Assembly (NCBI GenBank): GCA_965116905.1
Contig: OZ220732.1
Coordinates: forward strand, 3,808,001-3,872,000
DNA from: Longimicrobiales bacterium
Lineage (GTDB): Bacteria; Gemmatimonadota; Gemmatimonadetes; Longimicrobiales; Gaopeijiaceae
Length of the DNA stretch: 64,000 bases
Direction: 5' to 3'
In this document: one piece after another, positions 38,694 to 51,876 of the stretch
Numbering within the stretch: the first letter of the stretch is position 1
Layout of the letters: each line of letters begins with the position of its first letter
Position numbers and translations under genes: made by a program
Notes under the pieces: model-generated
The model's input: only the letters and a program-made list of their open reading frames with translations
The model's database searches: none
Told to the model about the DNA's origin: nothing

Positions 38694-40244
38694 ATGGCGG
38701 TCGAACGACAATCGACCTCGAAGGGCCGCGCGCTCGGCCTCTGGCTCGGCCTTGGCGCCTTCGTCCTTCTCCTCGTGTTCCCCGTGGACGCCACGAACGT
38801 GCCCGCCAGCCGCCTGGCCGCGGTGGCCCTTCTCATGGCGATCTGGTGGGTCACCGACGCGATTCCGCTGTTTGCGACCGCACTGCTGCCCCTGGTCCTG
38901 TATCCGCTGCTCGGCATCATGTCCGGAGGCGACACCGCCCCGATCTACTTCAACAGCACGATCGTGCTCTTCCTGGGCGGCTTCATGATCGCCCTGACGA
39001 TGGAAAAGTGGAACCTGCACCGGCGCATCGCGCTCAACATCATCCACGCGGTCGGGGGCGGACCGGCGCGAATCGTTCTCGGATTCATGGTCGCGGCCGC
39101 GTTCCTGTCGATGTGGATTTCGAACACCGCGACCGCCGTCATGATGGTGCCGATCGGCCTCGCCATCTGCCTGCAGATCGAGAGCGAGGCAGGCCGCGAC
39201 GGCGCGCGCCACCTGTCGGTGGGCCTGATGCTGGGGATCGCGTACGGCTGCACGGTGGGCGGGCTCACGACGCTGGTGGGCACGCCTCCCAACCTGTCCT
39301 TCGTGCGCATCTTCGAGATCCTTTTCCCCGACGCGCCACCGATCGCCTTCGGACAATGGCTCATCATGGCGTTCCCGGTGGGCCTGATCATGCTGATCGT
39401 GTCCTGGTTTCTCATCACGCACGTGCTTCACCGCGTCCCGGAGGGCGTGACCATCGATCACGGGGTGGTGGAGAGGGAGCGTCAGGGCCTGGGGGCCATT
39501 TCGTTTGAGGAGCGCGCGGTGCTGGGGGTCTTCGCGGCCACGGCGCTGCTGTGGGTCTTCCGGGTCGACCTGCAGCTGGGCTTCCTCACGGTTCCGGGCT
39601 GGTCGCGCATCCTTCCCGACCCGGGCATGATCGATGACGGAACCGTTGCGATCACGCTCGCGTCCCTGCTCTTCTTCATCCCCGCGAAGAACCGGAAGAA
39701 GGGCGCGACGCGCGTCATGGGACCCGACGTGATCCCGCGCCTGCCCTGGAACATCGTGCTGCTCTTCGGCGGCGGTTTCGCGCTGGCGGCGGGCTTTCAG
39801 GAGACCGGGCTCGCGCAGCTCATCGGCAGCCAGTTCGAGGTGCTCGGCAGCCTGCCCGTATTCGTGATGATCTTGCTGGTGTGCGCGGCGCTGACCTTCC
39901 TCACGGAGTTCACCAGCAACACGGCCACGACCGAGATGGTCCTGCCGATCCTCGCGTCGGTGGCCGTGGTGACCGGCACCCATCCCCTCGTGCTGATGAT
40001 CCCCGCCACCCTGTCCGCGTCGTGCGCGTTCATGATGCCGGTGGCGACCCCGCCCAACGCGATTGTCTTCGGCAGCGACCGGATCACCGTGGGCGAGATG
40101 GCGCGCGCGGGCATCTTCCTCAACCTGATCGGCGTGCTGGTCATCGCGACCGTCGTCTTTACGGTGGGCCTGCACGTCTTCGACATCGACCCTGCAATGG
40201 TGCCGGAGTGGGCGCGGTCAATGGCGGAGGGGGCGCACGAGTAG
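38694..40244 (+). CDS. SLC13/DASS family sodium:dicarboxylate/sulfate symporter
   Basis: LSMWISNTATA, TLVGTPPN, LTEFTSNTAT, AFMMPVATPPNAIVF. Confidence 0.95.
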   Translation: MAVERQSTSKGRALGLWLGLGAFVLLLVFPVDATNVPASRLAAVALLMAIWWVTDAIPLFATALLPLVLYPLLGIMSGGDTAPIYFNSTIVLFLGGFMIALTMEKWNLHRRIALNIIHAVGGGPARIVLGFMVAAAFLSMWISNTATAVMMVPIGLAICLQIESEAGRDGARHLSVGLMLGIAYGCTVGGLTTLVGTPPNLSFVRIFEILFPDAPPIAFGQWLIMAFPVGLIMLIVSWFLITHVLHRVPEGVTIDHGVVERERQGLGAISFEERAVLGVFAATALLWVFRVDLQLGFLTVPGWSRILPDPGMIDDGTVAITLASLLFFIPAKNRKKGATRVMGPDVIPRLPWNIVLLFGGGFALAAGFQETGLAQLIGSQFEVLGSLPVFVMILLVCAALTFLTEFTSNTATTEMVLPILASVAVVTGTHPLVLMIPATLSASCAFMMPVATPPNAIVFGSDRITVGEMARAGIFLNLIGVLVIATVVFTVGLHVFDIDPAMVPEWARSMAEGAHE

Positions 40245-40250
40245 GGGAAC

Positions 40251-40300
40251 TTGACAGCGTGCGACTCGCCCCCGCACTTTGTTCGGCAACCGAACAAAGT
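40251..40300 (+). promoter_or_regulatory. Sigma70-like promoter (TTGACA-N18-CACTTT) overlapped by a palindromic operator ACTTTGTTCGG-CAA-CCGAACAAAGT (40276-40300)
   Basis: Perfect 11-3-11 palindrome; an identical element occurs on the opposite strand at 51827-51876; a ROK regulator gene lies in the locus. Confidence 0.85.
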
Positions 40301-40373: not shown

Positions 40374-42326
40374 ATGACAGCGAGCGCCTCAGATCGGCCG
40401 ACAGTCGCGCCCCGGTCAACCTACGGCGGAATGCGCGTCGCCATTCGAGCGGCCGTGCCGGTCATGGTCCTCATCGGCGCCGCCAGCTGTGAACGGGATA
40501 TCGCCACGCTCGATCCTGCTCCGTTTCCCCCGGAAGCGGAGGTCTTCTACGACGGCTTCGGTCCCGGAGTGCAGTTCTCGGCCTTTGGCGGCTCCAAGGT
40601 CGACGCCCTGGCCATTGAGCACGACGAGGTCTACCGCGGGACCGCCGCACTCAAGTTCACGATACCCGCGCCCACGGATCCCTCCGGCGGCTACGCCGGC
40701 GGCGTCTTCTACTCCGAGGTGCCCCGCGACCTCACCGGCTTTGACGCGCTCACCTTCTGGGCCAGGGCAAGCACTGCGGCCACGGTCAACACCATCGGGA
40801 TCGGCAACGACAACACCGGCGGTTCGCGCTATCCCGCCACGATCGAGGGGCTTCCTTTCTCCACGCGCTGGACGAAGTACGTCGTCCCCTTTCCGCTTCC
40901 GTCCAGGTTGGGCCAGGAGACCGGCCTCTTCCTGATCGCGGAGGGTTCCGAGTACCCGGTCGGCTACGACATCTTCTTCGACGACGTGCAGTTCGAGCGG
41001 CTCGGGACGATCATCAACCCGAGGCCCGCCATCGCGACACAGACGGTAAACGGTGAAGTGGGAGGGACGCTGTCGGTCGGCGGCACGCAGGTGACCTTCG
41101 ACGTCGGCGGCAAGGACCAGACGGTTCTTGCGGCTCCGGCCTACTTCACCTTCACCTCTTCCAATTCGGGAGTGGCCTCGGTGACCCCGGACGGCTCGAT
41201 CTCGCTGATTTCGTCGGGCACCGCCACGATCACCGCCACTCTGGGCTCCACCGCCGCCGCGGGTGCGGTCACCGTCAACGTCACGGCGCCCCCCACGGGC
41301 GCGCCTCCCACTCCCGCGCATCCGGCCGGAGACGTGATCTCCCTGTTCAGCGACGCCTACGATGATGTCCCGGTCGACACCTGGTCGGCGGTCTGGGACC
41401 AGGCGGACGTCGAGGACATCCGGGTCGCCGGCAACCCGGTCAAGAAGTACACCAACCTGGCCTACGCCGGCATCGAGTTCACCTCGCAGCCGATCAACGC
41501 AGCGTCCATGACCGAACTCCACGTCGATCTCTGGACCAACGATCCTTCCGCTTTCCGGATCAAGCTGGTCGACTTCGGAAGCAACGGGGTCTTCGGAGGC
41601 GGCGACGACACGGAACACGAGATCACCCTCGATCAGGGCTCGATGCCACCCATCGCCGCCGGAGCCTGGAACACCCTCGACATCCCGCTCTCGGCCTTTA
41701 CGGGTCTCCTGAACCGGGGCAACCTGGCGCAGATGATCATCTCCGGATCCAGCCCGACCGTCTACCTGGACAACATCTACTTCTTCACCACCAAGCCGCC
41801 TCCGCCGAGCGCGCCCAGCGAGGCCGCCCCGACGCCGACGCACGCCGCGACCGACGTTGTGTCGCTCTTCAGCGACGCCTACAAGGACGCGGCCGTCGAT
41901 ACGTGGTCGGCTTCCTGGGACCAGGCCGATGTCGAGGATGTGCAGATCGCGGGCGACGCCGCCAAGAAGTACAGCAACCTGGTCTTCGCCGGCATCGAGT
42001 TCACCTCGGCGACGCTCGACGCCACCGGGATGACGCACTTCCACATGGATCTCTGGACGCCGGATCCAACGGCAGACCCGTCGGCCTTCCGGATCAAGCT
42101 CGTCGACTTCGGTCCCGATGGCGGCTTCGGCGGAGGGGACGACACCGAACACGAATTGACGTTGAATGCAATGTCCGATCCGCCGCTGGCGACGGGAATG
42201 TGGGTGAGCTACGACATTGTCCTGACGGCGTTCACGGGGCTGACGACACGCGGGCACCTTGCCCAGATGATCATCTCCGGTGATCCGAACACGGTGTTTA
42301 TCGACAACGTGTACCTGCACAAGTAA
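40374..42326 (+). CDS. Carbohydrate-binding lipoprotein: CBM-like domain, Ig-like (Big_2) domain, two tandem CBM-like repeats
   Basis: Lipobox AASC; DLTGFDALTFWARA; FTSSNSGVASV...GTATITAT; two repeats of about 174 aa (VISLFSDAY...YAGIEF...FRIKLVDFG...DNIYF). Alternative start 40430. Confidence 0.8.
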   Translation: MTASASDRPTVAPRSTYGGMRVAIRAAVPVMVLIGAASCERDIATLDPAPFPPEAEVFYDGFGPGVQFSAFGGSKVDALAIEHDEVYRGTAALKFTIPAPTDPSGGYAGGVFYSEVPRDLTGFDALTFWARASTAATVNTIGIGNDNTGGSRYPATIEGLPFSTRWTKYVVPFPLPSRLGQETGLFLIAEGSEYPVGYDIFFDDVQFERLGTIINPRPAIATQTVNGEVGGTLSVGGTQVTFDVGGKDQTVLAAPAYFTFTSSNSGVASVTPDGSISLISSGTATITATLGSTAAAGAVTVNVTAPPTGAPPTPAHPAGDVISLFSDAYDDVPVDTWSAVWDQADVEDIRVAGNPVKKYTNLAYAGIEFTSQPINAASMTELHVDLWTNDPSAFRIKLVDFGSNGVFGGGDDTEHEITLDQGSMPPIAAGAWNTLDIPLSAFTGLLNRGNLAQMIISGSSPTVYLDNIYFFTTKPPPPSAPSEAAPTPTHAATDVVSLFSDAYKDAAVDTWSASWDQADVEDVQIAGDAAKKYSNLVFAGIEFTSATLDATGMTHFHMDLWTPDPTADPSAFRIKLVDFGPDGGFGGGDDTEHELTLNAMSDPPLATGMWVSYDIVLTAFTGLTTRGHLAQMIISGDPNTVFIDNVYLHK

Positions 42327-42387: not shown

Positions 42388-43605
42388 ATGGAGGAGACGA
42401 GATCGGTACGGGCTGCCCCCCCTGCCTCGGACGGGAACCTTGCGACCACGGTCCTCAACCTCGTATGGAAACGTCGCGAACTCTCACGTGCCGAGATCGC
42501 CCGCCACACCGGGCGCTCGCGTTCCACGATCTCCGAAGTCGTCGCGCGGCTGCTCGACACCGGGCTGGTCGAGGAGGTGGGCAGCGGGGAGAGCAGGGGC
42601 GGACGGCGCCCCATCCTGATCGGGTTCCGGGACGGCGCCGGGGTCATTCTCGGCGTCGACCTGGGCGCGACCCACGTCTCCGTCATCCTGACCGATCTGC
42701 GGGGATCGGCGCTGGCGTGGCACGACCGAGCCTACCCGGTGCGCACCGATCCCGGCGGCGCGGGGAAGCTCGTGGTGGAACTGTGCCGCGACTGCGTTAC
42801 GGAGTGGAACGGGGACAGCCGACTGTTGATGGGCATCGGGGTGGCCGTGCCAAGTCCGGTCGATCCGGAATCTCCGGATCGCGTGCTGGAGCGCATCCAC
42901 CCGGCATGGCGGGGGCGCGCAATCCTGGACAGGCTCGACGCATCCTTCGGCGCACCCGTTTTCGTCGACAACGACGCCAACCTCGGTGCGGTGGCCGAAC
43001 GCTGGTGGGGCAAGGCGCAAGGCGTGGACGACTTCATCTACCTGAAGGTCGCCACCGGGGTAGGTGCCGGTCTCATGATCGGCGGGGAGATATACCGCGG
43101 CTCGACGGGAGTGGCCGGCGAGATCGGCCACATCGTGGTCGACCCCAGCGGCCCCGAATGCGTGTGCGGGAGTCATGGCTGCCTGGCCACATTCGTGGGC
43201 ACCGGGGCCTTGGTCGAAAGGACCAGGGACCTTCTCCGAAGCTCGCCCCCAAGCACCCTGGCCGGCATGGACCTGAACATCAGGATCATCGAAGAAGCGG
43301 CGCTGCGGGACGATCCGGTGGCTCTCCGGGTCGTGCACGAAGCAGCTCATCACCTGGGCATCGCCCTGGCGGGCCTGCTCAATCTGCTGAATCCCGGATC
43401 AGTTGTAGTTGGGGGCAGCCTCGCCCGCGCCGGAGACCGGCTGCTGCTTCCGCTACGCGAGGCCGTGCTTCGGCGCACCCTCGTCACTTCGGCAGCCGCC
43501 GCCGAAATCGTCGTGAGCGAACTGGGGCCTCGCGCCACGGCATTGGGCGCGGCGACACACGTCCTGGTCGCCGCCCTCGCCGACCCCAGCCTCTTTCCGA
43601 AGTGA
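42388..43605 (+). CDS. ROK family transcriptional repressor
   Basis: N-terminal HTH LSRAEIAR.TG.SRSTIS, GGRRP, GVDLG, DNDANLGA.AE, AGEIGH, CVCGSHGCL; AAGGAGG RBS. Confidence 0.95.
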   Translation: MEETRSVRAAPPASDGNLATTVLNLVWKRRELSRAEIARHTGRSRSTISEVVARLLDTGLVEEVGSGESRGGRRPILIGFRDGAGVILGVDLGATHVSVILTDLRGSALAWHDRAYPVRTDPGGAGKLVVELCRDCVTEWNGDSRLLMGIGVAVPSPVDPESPDRVLERIHPAWRGRAILDRLDASFGAPVFVDNDANLGAVAERWWGKAQGVDDFIYLKVATGVGAGLMIGGEIYRGSTGVAGEIGHIVVDPSGPECVCGSHGCLATFVGTGALVERTRDLLRSSPPSTLAGMDLNIRIIEEAALRDDPVALRVVHEAAHHLGIALAGLLNLLNPGSVVVGGSLARAGDRLLLPLREAVLRRTLVTSAAAAEIVVSELGPRATALGAATHVLVAALADPSLFPK

Positions 43606-43611
43606 ATTGGC

Positions 43612-44466
43612 ATGATCGCCATCCAATCCGAACGGTGCCGCGGCCTCCGTGATCCGGGGGGCCCGCGCGGTCTGGTCATTGTTCCTTTGCTCGGTATGGC
43701 TCTGACCGCCTGCGACGATGGCACGACCGTAAACGAGGTTTCCTGGGAACTTGCCTGGAGCGACGAATTCGAGGGTCCCGCCGGCCAGCTTCCCGACCCG
43801 GCCAAGTGGGCCTTCGACATCGGCACCGACTGGGGCAACGCCCAGCTGGAATTCGACACCGACCGGCCCGAGAACGTGTCTCTGGACGGGAGCGGCAACC
43901 TGGCCATCACCGCACGCCGGGAATCCTATCAGGGCAGCGCGTACACGTCCGGCCGGATCAAGACGCAAGGGCTCTTCGAGCAGGCGTATGGCCGTTTCGA
44001 GGCACGGATCCGGCTCCCCACCGGGCAGGGTATCTGGCCCGCCTTCTGGATGCTCGGCAACGACATCGACGCGGTAGGCTGGCCGCAGTGCGGCGAGATC
44101 GACATCATGGAATACCGGGGTCAGGAGCCGAGTCTGGTGCTCGGCACCGTGCACGGACCCGGCTACTCCGCGAGTGCGGGAGTCACCGGCCGCTACGCCC
44201 TGTCCGGAGCGCGCTTCGACACCGGCTTCCATGTTTTCTCGATCGAGTGGACGGACGAGGACATCAAGTGGTTTGTCGACGGTGAGCACTACCACACCGT
44301 GGGTCCCGGCGACACCGGCGGCGAATGGGTCTTCGACCATCCCTTCTTCATCCTCCTCAATGTCGCGGTGGGCGGTGGCTTCGTGGGACCGCCCAACGAA
44401 TCCACGTCCTTCCCCCAGACCATGCTGGTCGACTGGGTGCGCGTCTACCAGAGCGACCGGGAATGA
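43612..44466 (+). CDS. GH16 laminarinase-type endo-beta-1,3-glucanase (lipoprotein)
   Basis: WSDEF, YTSGRIKT, YGRFEARI, WPAFWMLG, WPQCGEIDIME catalytic motif, LNVAVGG; lipobox LTAC. Confidence 0.93.
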   Translation: MIAIQSERCRGLRDPGGPRGLVIVPLLGMALTACDDGTTVNEVSWELAWSDEFEGPAGQLPDPAKWAFDIGTDWGNAQLEFDTDRPENVSLDGSGNLAITARRESYQGSAYTSGRIKTQGLFEQAYGRFEARIRLPTGQGIWPAFWMLGNDIDAVGWPQCGEIDIMEYRGQEPSLVLGTVHGPGYSASAGVTGRYALSGARFDTGFHVFSIEWTDEDIKWFVDGEHYHTVGPGDTGGEWVFDHPFFILLNVAVGGGFVGPPNESTSFPQTMLVDWVRVYQSDRE

Positions 44467-46571
44467 CCTCTCGCGGCGACACCCGGCCCCGGGACCGCAT
44501 ATCATTCCCGCACAAGGTCGCCTATGGGATTGGCGGGTTCGTCAACAACCTGCTGGCCTCGGCGATCGGCGGGATGACGATCATACTCACTCTGGCTTTG
44601 GGTGTCAGTCCCGCGCTCGTCGGACTGTTGGGGGCCCTTCCACGCATCTTCGACGCGATCACCGATCCCCTCGTGGGATTCATTTCCGACAACACGAAGT
44701 CGCGCTGGGGGCGCCGGCGGCCCTACATCTTCGCCGGGGCCATCTTCACCGGGATCGTGTTTGCGCTCCTCTGGCAGATTCCCGCCCCGGCACAGTTTCG
44801 CCTCAAGCTCGTGGACTACGGCGCGGACGGCATCTACAGCGGTCCACACGCGGTCCAGGAAACCGAGACGGTGGGTGTCGCACAGGCCGTTCGAGGCCGA
44901 ATGGGGGGTGCCCGGCGAATGGACGATGTCGAGCACGAGGTGACCATAATCCCCCCGACCCTTGTCACGGGCCAGTGGGTCGGCATCGACGTCCCCCTGG
45001 CAAGCTTCGACCAGTTGACCACGCGCGACCACCTCGCCCAGATCCTGATCTCGGGCGATCTGGAAAACGTCTACGTCGACAACATCTATCTCTACCGGGA
45101 AGAAGATGCAGGAGAGGGCGCGGCCGCGCCGGCGCTCGAAGACGTAGAGGGAGCGACGGAGCCGACGACCGCCGCGCCGGAGCCCACGCGACCGGCCGAG
45201 GACGTCATTTCCTTCTTCAGCGACGCCTACGACGATGTCCCGGTCGGGTATTTCTCCACGGACTGGGACCGGTCGGACGTGGAAGACGCGTTCGCGGGCG
45301 GCGATCCCGTCAAGCACTACTACAACCTTCGCTTCGCAGGGATCGACTTCGGCGAGCAGACGGTGGACGCCACCGCAATGACGCACGTGCATCTCGACAT
45401 CTGGACGCCCGACGCGACGCCCGAGGGCCGGAGCGACATGTACTACTTCTGGTACTTCCTGATCGGGTCGCTGATCTTCTTCCTGGGCTACACGGTCTTT
45501 GCCACGCCCTGGGTTGCGCTCGGCTATGAGCTGACGCCCGACTACAACGAGCGCACGCGGCTGATGGGCGTCCAGAACTTCATCAGCAACTTTGCGTTCA
45601 TCATCGCTCCGTGGTTCCTGGTGATCATGACGAATCCGGACTGGTTCCGTAACCAGATCGACGGCGCCAGGTTCCTCGCACTGATGATCTGCATCGCGAC
45701 GGTCGCCCTGGGCGTCCTTCCCGCCGTCTTCCTGCGCGAACGCCTTGCGCCGACGCCCGAAGCCACCCGGGCTCGAGCCGACGCGCCAGCCGGAAGCAAG
45801 GGGCTCGGCGCGAACGTCACCGAGTTCCTGTCAGGCCTGTTGAAGACCGTCAAATCCGGGCCGTTTCTGCTGCTGTGCCTCGCGACCTTCCTGATCTTCA
45901 ACAGCTTTATCATGATCTCGTCGTTCCAGATCTTCGTGTTCATCTACCACATTTCCGAGGGAAGCCAGGTGAACGGCGCCTGGCTCGCCGGCATAGTGGG
46001 TACGGTGGGGATGGTGGCGGGTTTCGGGGCCATCGTTGTGGTCACCTGGCTGGGCACCAGGATCGGAAAGCGGAGGGCGTTCTTCGTCTCGACGGCCATT
46101 TCCATGCTCGGCTACGCGTTGAAATGGTTCTGTTACCGCCCCGAGTACCCCATGCTGGCTCTCGTGCCCGCGCCCTTCCTCGCGTTCGGCCTGAGCGGAC
46201 TCTTCACCCTGATGGGTTCGATGATCGCGGACGTGGTGGATCTGGACGAACTCGGGAACATGGACGCCCAGGGACGAAGCCAGCGACGGGAAGGGATGTT
46301 CGGCTCCATCTACTGGTGGGTCGTCAAGGTCGGTCAGGCGGCAGCGATCGGACTCGGCGGACTCCTCCTGGTCGCAACCGGATTCGATGTCGACCTGGGA
46401 GCCAACCAGGGGGCGCAAACGCTCGTCCTGATGCGCGTCTTCGACGCCTTCATCCCCCTGGCCGCATCCGGTCTCGCCATCTACGCGATCGCCAGGTTCC
46501 CGATCACGGAACAGATGGCGCTCCGGACACGCGAGGAACTGGAGCGGCGGCGGGCGGGCGCGGCGGCGTAG
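44463..46571 (+). CDS. GPH-family MFS sugar transporter with an inserted CBM-like domain
   Basis: KVAYGIG, RIFDAITDPLVGFISD..KSRWGRRRP, ELTPDYNERTRL, SMIADVVD, RREG; insertion of about 210 aa after TM3. ATGA overlap with the GH16 stop. Confidence 0.9.
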   Translation: MTSRGDTRPRDRISFPHKVAYGIGGFVNNLLASAIGGMTIILTLALGVSPALVGLLGALPRIFDAITDPLVGFISDNTKSRWGRRRPYIFAGAIFTGIVFALLWQIPAPAQFRLKLVDYGADGIYSGPHAVQETETVGVAQAVRGRMGGARRMDDVEHEVTIIPPTLVTGQWVGIDVPLASFDQLTTRDHLAQILISGDLENVYVDNIYLYREEDAGEGAAAPALEDVEGATEPTTAAPEPTRPAEDVISFFSDAYDDVPVGYFSTDWDRSDVEDAFAGGDPVKHYYNLRFAGIDFGEQTVDATAMTHVHLDIWTPDATPEGRSDMYYFWYFLIGSLIFFLGYTVFATPWVALGYELTPDYNERTRLMGVQNFISNFAFIIAPWFLVIMTNPDWFRNQIDGARFLALMICIATVALGVLPAVFLRERLAPTPEATRARADAPAGSKGLGANVTEFLSGLLKTVKSGPFLLLCLATFLIFNSFIMISSFQIFVFIYHISEGSQVNGAWLAGIVGTVGMVAGFGAIVVVTWLGTRIGKRRAFFVSTAISMLGYALKWFCYRPEYPMLALVPAPFLAFGLSGLFTLMGSMIADVVDLDELGNMDAQGRSQRREGMFGSIYWWVVKVGQAAAIGLGGLLLVATGFDVDLGANQGAQTLVLMRVFDAFIPLAASGLAIYAIARFPITEQMALRTREELERRRAGAAA

Positions 46572-46578
46572 GTCGGCG

Positions 46579-48498
46579 TCAGCGCGGCCCGGCGCCCCGC
46601 CGCTCCTGTCGCGGTCGCAGTGTCTCGCCTCGGACCGCCAGCCCATGGCCCCGGGGAAAGAGGATGTTCTCCCCGCCCGGCCCGGCACCGTTGCCGGTCG
46701 GGTCCGTCGGTGTTCTGCCCGGCCAGGTGGACGACAGCCGCCCCGTGAACTCGTGGTCGCCGAAGAGCACGTCGGCCACGCCCGCGCCCTCCGAGCCAGG
46801 CAGCCACGCCGCGACGAAGGCCGCCGATTCGGCGAGTTCCGCGTCCACCACGAGGGGGCGGCCCGAAATGAGGACCGTGACCACGTGTATGCCGCGCGCT
46901 GCCAGTCTGCGAATGGTGGCGAGGTCCTCGGGGTGCAGGGTGGCAAGCTCCAGGGTCTGTCCATACGGCATGAGCACACCAGGACCTGCGGGCAGGTGGT
47001 TGGCGCCGGGGCGAACGGGGCTCGGGTCCCGGATGTCACCCACCCCCTCGGCGTATGGACGCTCGCCGATGACCACCACAGCCGTATCGAAGTCGTCGGC
47101 CTCGGCGACTGCTCCACCGTTACCGCAGAGCACAGACCCCGGCGCCACATCCCGAATACCCTCCCAGATCGAGGTGCCGCCCGGAACCCTCTCGTTGCCC
47201 GAGATGCCCTGCCATTCGACGGTGAAGCCGCCGCACTGCCGCCCGCGGTCGTGCGCGTTGCGGCCCGTGACCAGAATGCGCGCGCCGCGGCGGAGGGGCA
47301 GGGCGCCGCCCTCGTTCTTGAGGAGCACGAGGGACTTGCGCACCGCTTCCCGGGCGACCTCGCGGTGCTCGCGTGACCCGAAGCCCGCGCCGTCGGCCCT
47401 CCCGCGCAGCGCCGGGCGCGCCTTGTCGAACAGGCCGCTCGCGAGCTTGACCCGCAGGATCCTCGTCACCGCGTCGTCGATCCGCTCGATGGGCACTGCG
47501 CCCCGTTCGACCTGTGAGATCAGCCCCGAGATGAGCTCCCGCCACGTCTCCGGCACCATGAACATGTCGACGCCCGCGTTGACCGCCATCGCCGCGGCCT
47601 CGCCGTAGTCGTCCGCCAGCGGATCGACGCCGTTCCAGTCCGAGACGACGAAGCCGGCAAAGCCCAGTTCACCCTTCAGCACGTCCCGTATCAGGTATCG
47701 GTGTGCGTGGCACTTCGAACCGTTCCAGCTGCTCAGCGAGGCCATCACCGTGAGGACGCCGGCATCGAGCGCGGGGAGGTAGGGTGCGACATGGAGGCGG
47801 CGCAACTCCACCTCGTCGGCGAGCGTGTCGCCCTGGTCCACGCCGGCATCGGTGCCGCCGTCTCCGACCCAGTGCTTGGCGCAGGCCAGAACGCTGTCCG
47901 GACCCGGTCCCGCGAGGCCGTCTCCGCGGCCCGCCTCCTGCAGTCCACGCACGATCCGCGCCGCGTACTCCGCCACCAGCGCGGGATCCTCCGAGTAGCT
48001 CTCGTAGGTGCGCCCCCAGCGCGGATCGCGCGCGACGGCAAGCGTGGGCGCGAAGGTCCAGTCCACGCCGGTGGCCAGCACTTCCAGCGCCGTGACCCGC
48101 CCGATCCGTTCGACGAGATCCGGGTCGCCCGCCGCCCCCAATCCGATGTTGTGTGGGAAAACCGTCGCGCCGAGGACGTTGGCGTTGCCGTGGATCGCAT
48201 CGACCCCGTAGAGGATCGGTATCGCCATGTGGTCCTCGTCCTCTTCCATCGAGGCCGACCAGTACGCGTCGTTCATCGCCACCCAGTCGGCCGGGCGGTT
48301 GCGGCCCGGGCACGAACCGCCGCCGCTCAGCACCGAACCGATGTGGTACGCCTTGACCTGCGCGGGGCTGACGTGCTGCCGTTCCGGCTGCGTCATCTGC
48401 CCGATCTTCTGCGCAAGCGTCATGCGCACGACCAGGTCGCCGGCACGCTCCGCGATCTCGGCCGTGTGGCCGTGGGCGACGCTTGTGAACCCGTTCAC
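46579..48498 (-). CDS. GH3 beta-glucosidase (exo-beta-1,3-glucosidase-like), no signal peptide
   Basis: QKIGQMTQ, GVDAIHG, FPHNIGLGA, RDPRWGRTYES, CAKHWVGDG, FVVSDW nucleophile, SLVLLKN, AAWLPGSEG. Confidence 0.95.
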   Translation of the reverse strand: MNGFTSVAHGHTAEIAERAGDLVVRMTLAQKIGQMTQPERQHVSPAQVKAYHIGSVLSGGGSCPGRNRPADWVAMNDAYWSASMEEDEDHMAIPILYGVDAIHGNANVLGATVFPHNIGLGAAGDPDLVERIGRVTALEVLATGVDWTFAPTLAVARDPRWGRTYESYSEDPALVAEYAARIVRGLQEAGRGDGLAGPGPDSVLACAKHWVGDGGTDAGVDQGDTLADEVELRRLHVAPYLPALDAGVLTVMASLSSWNGSKCHAHRYLIRDVLKGELGFAGFVVSDWNGVDPLADDYGEAAAMAVNAGVDMFMVPETWRELISGLISQVERGAVPIERIDDAVTRILRVKLASGLFDKARPALRGRADGAGFGSREHREVAREAVRKSLVLLKNEGGALPLRRGARILVTGRNAHDRGRQCGGFTVEWQGISGNERVPGGTSIWEGIRDVAPGSVLCGNGGAVAEADDFDTAVVVIGERPYAEGVGDIRDPSPVRPGANHLPAGPGVLMPYGQTLELATLHPEDLATIRRLAARGIHVVTVLISGRPLVVDAELAESAAFVAAWLPGSEGAGVADVLFGDHEFTGRLSSTWPGRTPTDPTGNGAGPGGENILFPRGHGLAVRGETLRPRQERRGAGPR

Positions 48499-48534: not shown

Positions 48535-51500
48535 CTACATCCCGATGTGCAGGTAGGTCCGAATCTCCCACTCGCGTCCGTTCTCGCCGCCGAGGTCGGG
48601 GTTGCACTCCATCCTCCCGAAGTCATCGGGCGAGAGCCCCGGACAGTAGCGGGGCGAGAACTCGTTGAGGGTGCGCATCGCAGCCCGTACGCCGAAACGG
48701 GTCTGCGGCATGTCGAACCACTCGGGAGGACCGAGGGTGTACGAGACGTCGCCCACCAGCTGCAGCGGGAAGGTGTGGTTGAAGTCGCGGTGGTAGTCGT
48801 ACGGGCCCCAGTCGTTGATCCGCGCCATCGACTGGAACTTGATCGAGCCGGCGATCAGACGCAGGTCCAGCCCGGCCCGGTTGATCACGCGCTCGTCGCT
48901 GCCGTTGGGTTCTCCCTTGCCCACGAAGACGTTGGCGACAACCCCTGCCGCGGCCGAGCGCTTCGAGACGATCCGCGCCTTGACCTCCCACAGGTCGCGC
49001 GCAGGAGGTGCACCGGGGAACGCGAAGGTCGAGCGGCCGTCGGCGAAGATTCCGATCCCGGCGTCCTGGGTGGTGGGGAAGCTGTAGTACACGAAGCCGA
49101 ACGAGGTCGCGAAGCGCGCGTCCTCGCGAATGTCGCTGTCCCAGGTGTACATCCAGGTGGCGGGGGTCGGGTCGTAGGTGAAGAGGATTTCGGCCGCGCG
49201 GGTCTCGCGGTTGCCCCGGACGGCAAAGGGGTCGTCCAGGATGTTGCGGGGACGTCCCGGGGCCGGGGCATCGGCCGGCACCGGACCCACCAGAGGTTTC
49301 CGCCACAGGAAGTTCGGCGCGACCTGCCAGTTGCCCGAGGTGATCGCGAACCCGGTGATGACGTTGCGCTGGTTGCCGTGCCCCGTGTCCTTCAGCGTCC
49401 ACCCGGTGAAAGTCTGAGTCTGGGTGAAGCCGCCGTCGGCCACGAGGCCCATCGCCGCACCCTGCAGATACCAGCTCAGCCGCCCCCGGGTGAGCGTGAT
49501 CCTGGCCTTCGCCCCCAGTGCGTCCGACGGCTTGATCTCGTCGTGGAGCACCCGGTAGCTGCCGGGCGATCCGTCGACGACCTGGAAGGGCTGCCCTTCC
49601 TTGGTGCTCCCCGACCAGATGCCGCCGACATCGACGATCATGTTGCCGCGGGTCGCGGTCATGTGCAGGGTCGCCTTGCGCGTCGGCGGGAGCGGAATGG
49701 CGAACGAGCTGGCCGCCTTCCCCGCCGCGGCCAGGTCTTCCTGGTAGATGGCCGTCGTCTCGAAGGGCCCGATATTCGTCTGGTACTTGGCCAGGATCGC
49801 CGGGTTGGCTCCCCACCAGAGCTCCGGGCCAATCGCCACCTTCCACCCGCTGAAGGAGCGCTTGCCGGTGATCTCCATCCCGACCGGCGCAACCCCGTTG
49901 TAGATGTCCATGTTGGGCCCGTAGTTGGCCTCCGGGTACAGCCCGAAGAAGTCGCCCTCGTAGCCCCAGTGGTAGTGGCCGGTGCGGTAGAAGCCCTCGA
50001 GGTTGAACCAGCGGTCGTCCCACGAAAAGCTGGCGTTGTAGACCTTGAGCCGCTCGATGTCCTGGAGCTGGAAGGTCTCGCCGTTGTCGGCCTCGATGAC
50101 GCGCGAGCGGCCCCTGTTCTCGTAGAAGAGTTCGTCGATCGGATTCTGGGGAACGTCGCCGAGGATGTTCAGAGAGACGTTCGCGACCATGCTCTGGACG
50201 GGCCTGGCGGCCATGTCCGCATAGAACGACTGCATCTTGTCGAAGCCCCGGTGACTGGGGAAGGAGCGGTTCCGTTCCGGAGCCTCCTCGGGCGTGCTCA
50301 CCAGGCGGCCGCCGGTGCTGAAGGTCTCGAGTTCCGCCCGGATTCCACTCAGGTGAACGCGGTCGCGCGCGGTGGCCAGCAGGGCGGCGCGGTCGCCCAG
50401 GGCCTGCAGGGCGACGTTGGCTGGCTGGATCGAGGCGAAGTGCTGCCGGATGGCCGCAACATCCGTTCCCGGCCCGTACGGATCGAGCCTGTACGCTTCC
50501 TGCAGCGCGTAGTAGGCGGCGCGCGGGTAGAGTTCGTAGAGGTTGTTGTGGTCGGTGGGGCCCTTGGCGACGATCCCCCACCACTCCTCGTTCATGTTGT
50601 TGTCGCCCTCGACGAAGTCCTCCGGATAGGCGTCGTTCGCCCACGAGGCGTTGGTGTCCTGGATGTCCAGCCGGTCCTCCTGGCCGAACTTCCACCACCC
50701 GTCGGTCCACTGGAAGGTGAGACCCCCGATCGAGTTGCCCACGCCCCCCTTCCCGGCGGATTCCTCGTAGATCTCGCGCCACTGCTCGATCAGGTACTTC
50801 GCCTGCGTGACCTGGTCCTCGCGCATGTTCTTCGCGTCCCAGACATCCGCGCCGAACTCGGTGAACATGACGGGGCGGTCGAGCTTGTCGTGCACCTCCT
50901 GGAAGAGGTCCCTGAAGGAGATGCCGCGGTAGACGTTGGTGCCGAAGACGTCCAGGTCGGGGATCTCCTCGGCGATGATGTCGATGTACTGGAGGTCGCC
51001 GTTGGCCATCGCGATCGGGCGCGTGTCGTCCATCTCCTTGATGCGGGCAGCCACATCGCCGAAGAGCGAGTACATGTAGCGCGCGCGCACGGCGTCCGCC
51101 TCGCCTGCGGGCAAGTCCTCGGTCTCGGCCGAACTCCACACCAGTCCGTAGTTGTTCTCGTTGCCCAGCAGCCACATCAGGACGCCGGGAGTGTCCTTGA
51201 AGGCGCTGACCATCTCCTCGATCTCGCCCATCACCACCGCGCGGGCCCGCGGATCCGAGTAGTCCGTGTTGGGGTTGAAGACGCCGCCCACGGTCACGCC
51301 GTAGCGCGCGACCGCGTGGTTCAGGACCGTGTAGATCCCGTACGTCTCGTAGATATGCCGCACCCACTTCGGCGTGATCCCCACATAGGCGCGGATCGCA
51401 TTCCCGCCCATCGCCTTCAGCAGCGACATCTCGCGTTCGAGCGCCGCCTCGATGATGTGGTCGGGCTCGGTCCAGAAGTTGTAGTTGTAGGTGGTGCCGC

Positions 51501-51795
51501 GCGGGAAGTAGTCCCAGTTGACGCCGAGCACCATGATGTCGTCGCCGTCCACCTGGAGACGGGTGCCCGAGTCGTCCGTGACGAGCTCGATGACCGGCAT
51601 GTCGGGCTCGGCGTCCTGCGCCGCACCGGGCGTGGCGGGTGCGAGCGCGAGAACGAGCGCCAGGGCGAGCGCCAGGGCGAGCGCCAGGGCGGAGGCAAGA
51701 GCCGGCGATTCCATCAAGCCGCGCGCGGTGAGCCGCCTCCCCGCGGCTGCGAGCCCGCTGGCGACTCGGGTGATCGGATGGCGGATCGAACTCAT
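48535..51795 (-). CDS. Clan GH-A (GH2-TIM-like) glycosidase fused to a large C-terminal beta-strand-rich (probable beta-barrel) domain
   Basis: Signal peptide; GVNWDY, NAIRAY, LGNENNY (acid/base) and FTEFGAD (nucleophile); C-terminal ~600 aa of amphipathic strands ending WEIRTYLHIGM; GGAGGAG RBS. Confidence 0.8.
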   Translation of the reverse strand: MSSIRHPITRVASGLAAAGRRLTARGLMESPALASALALALALALALVLALAPATPGAAQDAEPDMPVIELVTDDSGTRLQVDGDDIMVLGVNWDYFPRGTTYNYNFWTEPDHIIEAALEREMSLLKAMGGNAIRAYVGITPKWVRHIYETYGIYTVLNHAVARYGVTVGGVFNPNTDYSDPRARAVVMGEIEEMVSAFKDTPGVLMWLLGNENNYGLVWSSAETEDLPAGEADAVRARYMYSLFGDVAARIKEMDDTRPIAMANGDLQYIDIIAEEIPDLDVFGTNVYRGISFRDLFQEVHDKLDRPVMFTEFGADVWDAKNMREDQVTQAKYLIEQWREIYEESAGKGGVGNSIGGLTFQWTDGWWKFGQEDRLDIQDTNASWANDAYPEDFVEGDNNMNEEWWGIVAKGPTDHNNLYELYPRAAYYALQEAYRLDPYGPGTDVAAIRQHFASIQPANVALQALGDRAALLATARDRVHLSGIRAELETFSTGGRLVSTPEEAPERNRSFPSHRGFDKMQSFYADMAARPVQSMVANVSLNILGDVPQNPIDELFYENRGRSRVIEADNGETFQLQDIERLKVYNASFSWDDRWFNLEGFYRTGHYHWGYEGDFFGLYPEANYGPNMDIYNGVAPVGMEITGKRSFSGWKVAIGPELWWGANPAILAKYQTNIGPFETTAIYQEDLAAAGKAASSFAIPLPPTRKATLHMTATRGNMIVDVGGIWSGSTKEGQPFQVVDGSPGSYRVLHDEIKPSDALGAKARITLTRGRLSWYLQGAAMGLVADGGFTQTQTFTGWTLKDTGHGNQRNVITGFAITSGNWQVAPNFLWRKPLVGPVPADAPAPGRPRNILDDPFAVRGNRETRAAEILFTYDPTPATWMYTWDSDIREDARFATSFGFVYYSFPTTQDAGIGIFADGRSTFAFPGAPPARDLWEVKARIVSKRSAAAGVVANVFVGKGEPNGSDERVINRAGLDLRLIAGSIKFQSMARINDWGPYDYHRDFNHTFPLQLVGDVSYTLGPPEWFDMPQTRFGVRAAMRTLNEFSPRYCPGLSPDDFGRMECNPDLGGENGREWEIRTYLHIGM

Positions 51796-51826
51796 GGCTG
51801 CACTCCTCCCCGGCGGGCCCCGAATT

Positions 51827-51876
51827 ACTTTGTTCGGTTGCCGAACAAAGTGCGCGGCGGTTCGGGTCTCTGTCAA
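51827..51876 (-). promoter_or_regulatory. Second copy of the TTGACA-N18-CACTTT promoter plus 25-bp palindromic operator (51827-51851)
   Basis: Reverse complement reads TTGACA gagacccgaaccgccgcg CACTTTGTTCGGCAACCGAACAAAGT; the operator is identical to 40276-40300. Confidence 0.85.

Follow-up and report, generated by a model that had tools for sequence, protein, structure and literature searches.

A circularly permuted repeat of predicted carbohydrate-binding-module fold in the TM3–TM4 loop of a GPH-family symporter from Gemmatimonadota

The 64,000 nt stretch of a Longimicrobiales genome that was analysed (the window) contains an open reading frame for a 702 amino acid cation:sugar symporter of the GPH family. 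The symporter sequence displays an insert at aa positions 107–321, in the loop between transmembrane helices 3 and 4 (TM3 and TM4). This insert is the 168 aa repeat of a neighbouring lipoprotein in exact circular permutation, and the repeat is, by structural modelling, a beta-sandwich of the carbohydrate-binding-module (CBM) fold that resembles CBM11 and CBM30. The permuted module putatively binds beta-1,3-glucan chains or oligomers near the transporter entrance and would be accessory to uptake, a reading to which we assign a probability of roughly 0.55. A wider proposal stands a little below even odds: in one subfamily of bacterial symporters for glucan oligosaccharides, loop 3-4 may be a graft site where separate lineages repeatedly captured glycan-binding modules from adjacent genes, one of them in permuted form, which would give single-chain secondary transporters with a built-in putative capture domain. 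The features of the window are as follows.

40278–40298, no strand assigned: palindrome TTTGTTCGG-N3-CCGAACAAA before the left operon, likely a ROK operator
40374–42326, plus strand: lipoprotein-like protein with a lipobox-like GAAS-C motif, an Ig-like domain and, twice, the unpermuted repeat (41289–41789 and 41814–42323)
42388–43605, plus strand: ROK-family repressor
43612–44466, plus strand: GH16 glucanase-like lipoprotein with an EIDIME motif; its stop overlaps the transporter start
44463–46571, plus strand: GPH-family (MFS_2) cation:sugar symporter with insert, 702 aa, 12 predicted TM helices (Pfam, structure model)
44781–45425, plus strand: TM3–TM4 loop insert, aa 107–321, in place of the 2 aa loop of insert-less orthologues (alignments)
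44787–45098, plus strand: C-half of the repeat, repeat positions 86–166, five predicted strands, placed first (alignment, model)
44838–44918, plus strand: extra segment of about 27 aa in the GGGDD loop, absent from the lipoprotein repeats, low model confidence
45099–45158, plus strand: acidic, variable linker, the equivalent of the junction between repeats (old C-terminus to old N-terminus)
45159–45413, plus strand: N-half of the repeat, repeat positions 2–85, placed second and predicted to form four strands; contains W268, F291, G293 and D295 as candidate cleft residues
46579–48498, minus strand: GH3 beta-glucosidase-like enzyme, convergent
48535–51876, minus strand: protein of 1,100 aa that combines a GH2-type TIM barrel with about 600 C-terminal residues that have no assignment
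51829–51849, no strand assigned: second copy of the palindrome, before the opposite operon

The transporter is a single open frame. Pfam MFS_2 covers it in two stretches (E = 2e-52) around an unannotated block; the best stretch picks up again at residue 322, which is profile position 92, and the match has 178.5 bits against a curated cut-off of 27. The full-length model displays a 12-TM MFS fold (pLDDT 80.5, pTM 0.79) with MFSD2A and MelB as top fold matches, in agreement with the earlier naming of the protein as an MFS sugar permease. Fold searches with the full model gave MFS matches only, and the insert was thereby untouched by them. A paralogue of the transporter was not found elsewhere in the genome. 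Insert-bearing transporters at three loci (L050, L051 and L052) also have a longer central cytoplasmic loop.

The cation site of MelB, which we take to consist of D55, N58, D59, T121 and K377 on TM2, TM4 and TM11, aligns with D64, T67, D68, T344 and K622 of the window transporter. Each of these is invariant in all 94 aligned members, i.e. the query and 93 homologues, 27 near-duplicates or partial proteins having been left out. T67, at the N58 position, is a Thr as in MFSD2A. The galactoside site, presumably D19, D124, W128 and R149 of MelB, is occupied in the alignment by N29, A347, V351 and N372. This suggests a substrate that is not melibiose-like, and identity with the MelB melibiose permease was rejected on these positions. 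By inference the protein would carry out cation-coupled sugar uptake and resemble in its action a symporter that has a binding module tethered to it; read from the locus, its substrate appears to be beta-glucan-derived.

The 19 named genome loci are all from Gemmatimonadota, mainly Longimicrobiales or Palauibacter; one, L019, breaks off inside the insert. All 19 have the GH16 gene directly upstream of the transporter together with repeat proteins, and the ROK and GH3 genes are each present in 17. The two palindromes are the only matches to the 21 bp sequence in the genome at two or fewer mismatches. A beta-glucan locus is supported, with GH16 and GH3 genes under a likely ROK operator, and it is conserved. 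Marine Gemmatimonadota are described, in the accessible part of one paper, as encoding extracellular GH16_3 enzymes for laminarin (PMC11316326).

The palindrome recurs before the same operons in many related loci. The GH2-barrel protein, the true start of which is probably below 51829, is conserved in most loci. A sodium:sulfate symporter-family gene (38694–40244, plus strand) lies directly upstream of the locus here and in many relatives. The number of repeats per protein varies between loci from one to several (L001–L019 and L050–L069), and some of these loci have two separate repeat clusters. Many other repeat proteins carry T9SS tails or Ig domains. Retention of the GH16 lipoprotein at the inner membrane by an Asp at position +2 was considered and rejected; the residue varies across loci.

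An extra block of about 210 aa between TM3 and TM4 had been noted at 44784–45419, and alignment refines this to 44781–45425. Residues 109–321 of the transporter are colinear with residues 391–568 of the lipoprotein (40% identity, E = 1e-46), which comprise the C-half of repeat 1, the linker and the N-half of repeat 2. At the nucleotide level, 70% identity to the lipoprotein gene is left over 226 nt, and a shared 30-mer is located at 45216 and 41346 with one difference. The halves are swapped relative to the lipoprotein repeat, as had been claimed: they cover 161 of the 168 repeat positions (86–166 and then 2–85) with no overlap and a cut at 85/86. Their first approximate limits, 44796–45095 and 45160–45413, move slightly to 44787–45098 and 45159–45413. 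The natural order in the repeat family is N-half then C-half, and 718 of 738 domain matches are near full length. The lone match in permuted order among 199 proteins is a fragment of the insert-bearing transporter family. No further copy of the repeat was found in the genome beyond the lipoprotein and the transporter, and the insert alone matches no Pfam family.

The permutation itself therefore stands. It had been reasoned that a segment over the junction of two tandem repeats gives a permutant with adjacent new termini. Permutation was perhaps not needed to bring the ends together, since covariation pairs the N-terminal region of the natural repeat with its last strand and a second lineage has an unpermuted module in this loop.

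The segment of about 27 aa within the C-half is present in all 94 aligned members and is conserved in length and variable in sequence. A membrane-anchoring amphipathic helix in this segment was rejected; it is significant in 53% of the 94 homologues and the window copy has p = 0.93.

In the established MFS topology the N-terminus and loop 2-3 are inside and loop 3-4 is outside. The insert is thus predicted to be periplasmic, as had been reasoned before, and loop charges agree: the N-terminus and loops 2-3, 6-7 and 8-9 are rich in Lys and Arg and the insert is acidic (41 vs. 13). The charge check is supportive rather than complete, as loops 4-5 and 10-11 show no basic character.

The model of the unpermuted repeat has a pLDDT of 96.7 and shares its nine strands with the insert. 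In a Foldseek search with the unpermuted repeat, CBM11 (6r3m, E = 5e-7, TM 0.58), CBM30 (1wzx, TM 0.64) and CBM8 are on top, and there is also a resemblance to the module of the GH50 agarase Aga50D (4BQ2, unclassified). The same search lists non-glycan proteins as well, i.e. a complex I assembly factor and ciliary proteins. Although the modelled fold is shared with these CBMs and the 4BQ2 module, identities are 12%–17%, there is no family match, and the window module differs in being permuted and inside a membrane transporter. Membership of CBM11 or CBM30 was rejected, as none of 88 repeats matches either profile at E = 0.1. In other proteins there are only short CBM_11 matches, summed over arrays. 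The repeat has no Pfam family; sequence searches of the PDB returned no significant match to the insert, the repeats or the repeat profile, and Atlas matches to the repeat are unnamed clusters and weak CBM_11/CBM_4_9 leads.

Between TM3 and TM4 the full transporter model has nine strands, which follow the permuted order; the strand blocks are mostly at pLDDT 80–95, and residues 127–154 and 216–221 are at low confidence. A beta-sandwich over a 12-TM MFS had been expected from structure prediction, and the nine strands and the MFS helices are both modelled. Covariation among 718 free domains shows 17 of the 60 top pairs crossing the cut; thus the halves interlock in the free repeat, and within the transporter they would likewise pack as one domain.

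The transporter occurs in 37 of 401 genomes of the phylum. Both kinds of homologue are found, as a search proposed at the outset was meant to establish: 25 have the insert, 11 have a loop of 2 residues and one (G259) is unscored. The insert-less orthologues lie in operons of the same kind, and repeat proteins are still in the fetched locus of 8 of these 11 genomes. In a quick tree (68 rows) computed from the transporter core after removal of the insert, a single branch with SH-aLRT 100 unites the 26 insert-bearing rows; it lies within insert-less rows and spans two families. Reversion, i.e. loss of the insert, was not seen among the 120 best homologues listed. Insert length is 200–251 aa across the 94 aligned members. 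The permuted insert thus has one old origin within Gemmatimonadota.

Counts pooled over pairs of related sequences give dN/dS values for the insert beta core of 0.107 in six close sequences (transporter core, 0.092) and 0.24 in 13 other sequences (transporter core, 0.138). The linker has 0.44–0.66, and linker and variable loops together 0.31–0.66. The insert beta core is under purifying selection. The window repeats match the insert halves with 71 and 117 bits, and repeats in other proteins with 90 and 130 bits. Because better matches to the halves exist in other proteins, the graft appears old; the donor is the repeat family and not demonstrably the lipoprotein gene of the window. A recent copy from the adjacent lipoprotein gene is accordingly unsupported, as the window repeats are not the best match to the halves.

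Loop 3-4 is filled in other lineages also. Among 63 transporter representatives in which both halves are present, the loop has 1–4 residues in 59 and a large insert in four. The four are the permuted-repeat family, a WD40 propeller of about 360 aa (P0248, a single sequence) and a module of about 170–180 aa in one or two copies (P0252 and P0253). This second module is found in 38 transporters, 34 of them with both flanks visible, and in four other proteins (42 matches). In the four non-transporter carriers it is unpermuted and lies at the C-terminus of secreted enzymes with a GH50 catalytic domain (E = 4e-34). Atlas leads for the second module are to CBM30/Exop_C and are all below 0.9. Profile comparison of the two insert families shows no homology (probability 0.05%), and the permuted repeat and the GH50-type module may share a remote fold. 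Two uncharacterised CBM-like families are defined, the permuted-insert repeat and the GH50-type module.

A GH50-type insert is carried by 15 of 42 metagenome loci, some of which are near-duplicates, and locus L084 has the operon of the window with a GH50-type insert. A GH50-like gene is divergent beside the transporter in four of the 42 loci, two of these four being insert-less. The two insert families are parted by insert-less rows in a quick tree of 43 rows (LG+G4), and a single origin of both as one clade is rejected (p-AU = 1.3e-27). By these sequence comparisons loop 3-4 is a repeated insertion site that was filled independently. Repeated insertion favours a function, yet it would equally be expected of a permissive site. 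The second-module transporters are P0252, P0253 and P0394–P0432, with loci L070, L072, L075, L084 and L088; two of these transporters are named Planctomycetota by their source.

From conservation and covariation, W268, F291, G293 and D295 would form a cleft. In free repeats W268 is conserved at 95% and F291 at 88%, whereas 30 of the 94 inserts have lost both. An Asp replaces Glu63, which is near-invariant in the repeat, in 93 of the 94 inserts, and several further near-invariant repeat positions differ in inserts. The window copy keeps W268, F291 and G293, and W264 is Phe in this copy. One weak coupling places W268 by the cut, and in that position the residue would be near the membrane. Polar residues of surface type are near-invariant among the 94: K115 (89), E157 (94), E159 (93) and Q193 (82).

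The proposed course of events is that the transporter gene received a copy of an ancestral stretch over two tandem repeats from a repeat-lipoprotein gene in the locus, and that the copied halves refolded as one domain with links of a few residues to TM3 and TM4. The GH16 enzyme would then cut glucan, the module would hold the substrate or product close to the pore, and the permease would import short gluco-oligosaccharides with a cation. The presence of insert-less orthologues in the same operon indicates that the module is accessory and non-essential. Glucan capture is favoured by the CBM-type fold, the array-forming donor family, the GH16 fusions, the locus, the selection on the insert and the second capture of a CAZyme module. 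Against it are the non-glycan proteins with this fold, the insert-less sisters (11 of 37), the WD40 case and the erosion of the candidate cleft; also, no characterised sequence relative of the repeat family was found in the PDB or Pfam.

Alternatively, loop 3-4 may take any folded close-ended domain, the insert having come from local recombination and being kept mainly because the stability of the transporter depends on its folding, while glycan binding decays or is lost. Such a permissive site fits the presence of three unrelated inserts, a WD40 propeller included, at a single position, as well as donor-type genes that are neighbours, the joint loss of the candidate cleft aromatics, an insert dN/dS above that of the core in the second clade, and widespread insert-less orthologues. 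We consider this unlikely, however, because the one branch persists over two families with no reversion among the 120 best homologues, the surface-type polar residues are near-invariant and the second lineage duplicated its module.

A lower probability is given to a docking scaffold, in which the insert would recruit a periplasmic protein, either the co-translated GH16 lipoprotein or another one, and thereby bring hydrolysis to the pore. The overlap of the GH16 stop with the transporter start, a fold common to protein-interaction domains and an extra segment kept throughout the alignment are consistent with docking. The GH16 of the window has no module of its own, whereas 8 of 199 repeat-bearing proteins fuse both. 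There is also a precedent in PepT1 and PepT2, whose extracellular domain binds trypsin according to the available portion of the report (PMC4597091). However, the donor domain forms long tandem arrays on surface proteins, as is typical of glycan-binding proteins, and GH16 is equally present in insert-less loci. Quite improbable is a ligand-controlled gate, where glucan on the module would shift TM4, which is part of the cation site, and so regulate or sense rather than concentrate. The links to TM3 and TM4 are few residues long and highly conserved, and T344, a TM4 residue, falls on the cation site of MelB in the alignment, but the same site accepts unrelated domains of 160–415 aa, and Pfam found no signalling output domain.

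That the insert is an assembly chimera or a recent pseudogenising accident, as leftover DNA similarity to a gene 3 kb off might suggest, is refuted by homologues and contigs: the order TM3, C-half, N-half, TM4 is found in 120 of the 120 best homologues listed, a contig from another study spans both junctions, GC3 of the insert is 0.83, like the flanking transporter core, and selection is purifying. Read coverage of the junctions had been called for; single contigs from two studies span both, and the raw-read run X17 contributed 0 reads and has no weight either way. Record 2 of contig run X1, possibly the window's own source, covers 44636–46700 and both junctions with 0 differences, and record 12 of run X3, from the other study, covers 44300–45566 and both junctions with 92 substitutions and no gaps. 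In run X2 each junction is crossed, but by separate contigs.

Binding proteins serve ABC, TRAP and SusC/D systems; MFS symporters, to our knowledge, normally have no binding-protein partner. If the glucan-capture reading is correct, a single chain does here what binding proteins do in those systems, and capture would be a convergent route to better scavenging of laminarin-type carbon in marine and sponge-associated bacteria. Capture is directly testable, because near-identical insert-less orthologues are natural controls. The locus also offers a clean natural example of circular permutation via tandem duplication, in which donor family, cut point and empty site are all visible, and it marks loop 3-4 as a tolerant fusion site in MFS proteins.

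The preliminary description knew of no account of this architecture, and no published account of an MFS symporter with such a loop 3-4 module was found in the open-access literature that was searched. MelB and MFSD2A belong to the same family of GPH symporters (MFS_2), to which the window transporter and its insert-bearing homologues add a domain of 200–251 aa in loop 3-4. The surface glycan-binding protein of Christiangramia forsetii (Cf-SGBP) carries laminarin-binding CBMxx repeats, and the accessible text of the preprint makes no mention of MFS (bioRxiv 10.1101/2023.09.07.556657). As far as that text describes it, Cf-SGBP is similar to the window lipoprotein: in a lipoprotein of a laminarin locus, Ig-like domains precede beta-sandwich repeats in tandem, and there is a remote likeness to the 4BQ2 module. 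No sequence or fold-search match to its CBMxx module was obtained from the searched libraries, in which the presence of the module is unconfirmed. CBMxx is presumably the family later named CBM102.

The PepT1/PepT2 domain, in the part of its description that is available, is likewise a beta-sandwich inserted in an MFS fold on the outer side. It differs in being eukaryotic, Ig-like, located in another loop, trypsin-binding and dispensable for transport, transport being retained when the extracellular domain of PepT2 is removed (PMC4597091). FbGH17B of Formosa is an MFS-GH17 fusion with a 12-TM MFS, encoded in a laminarin locus (PMC6246565). From the available excerpt, the likeness is that a CAZyme-type domain is joined to a 12-TM MFS in such a locus; the Formosa domain is catalytic and appended C-terminally, whereas the window insert is non-catalytic, permuted and within a loop. 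A distant relative of the window transporter, P0277, has a C-terminal GH17 domain, which matches the Formosa type of fusion.
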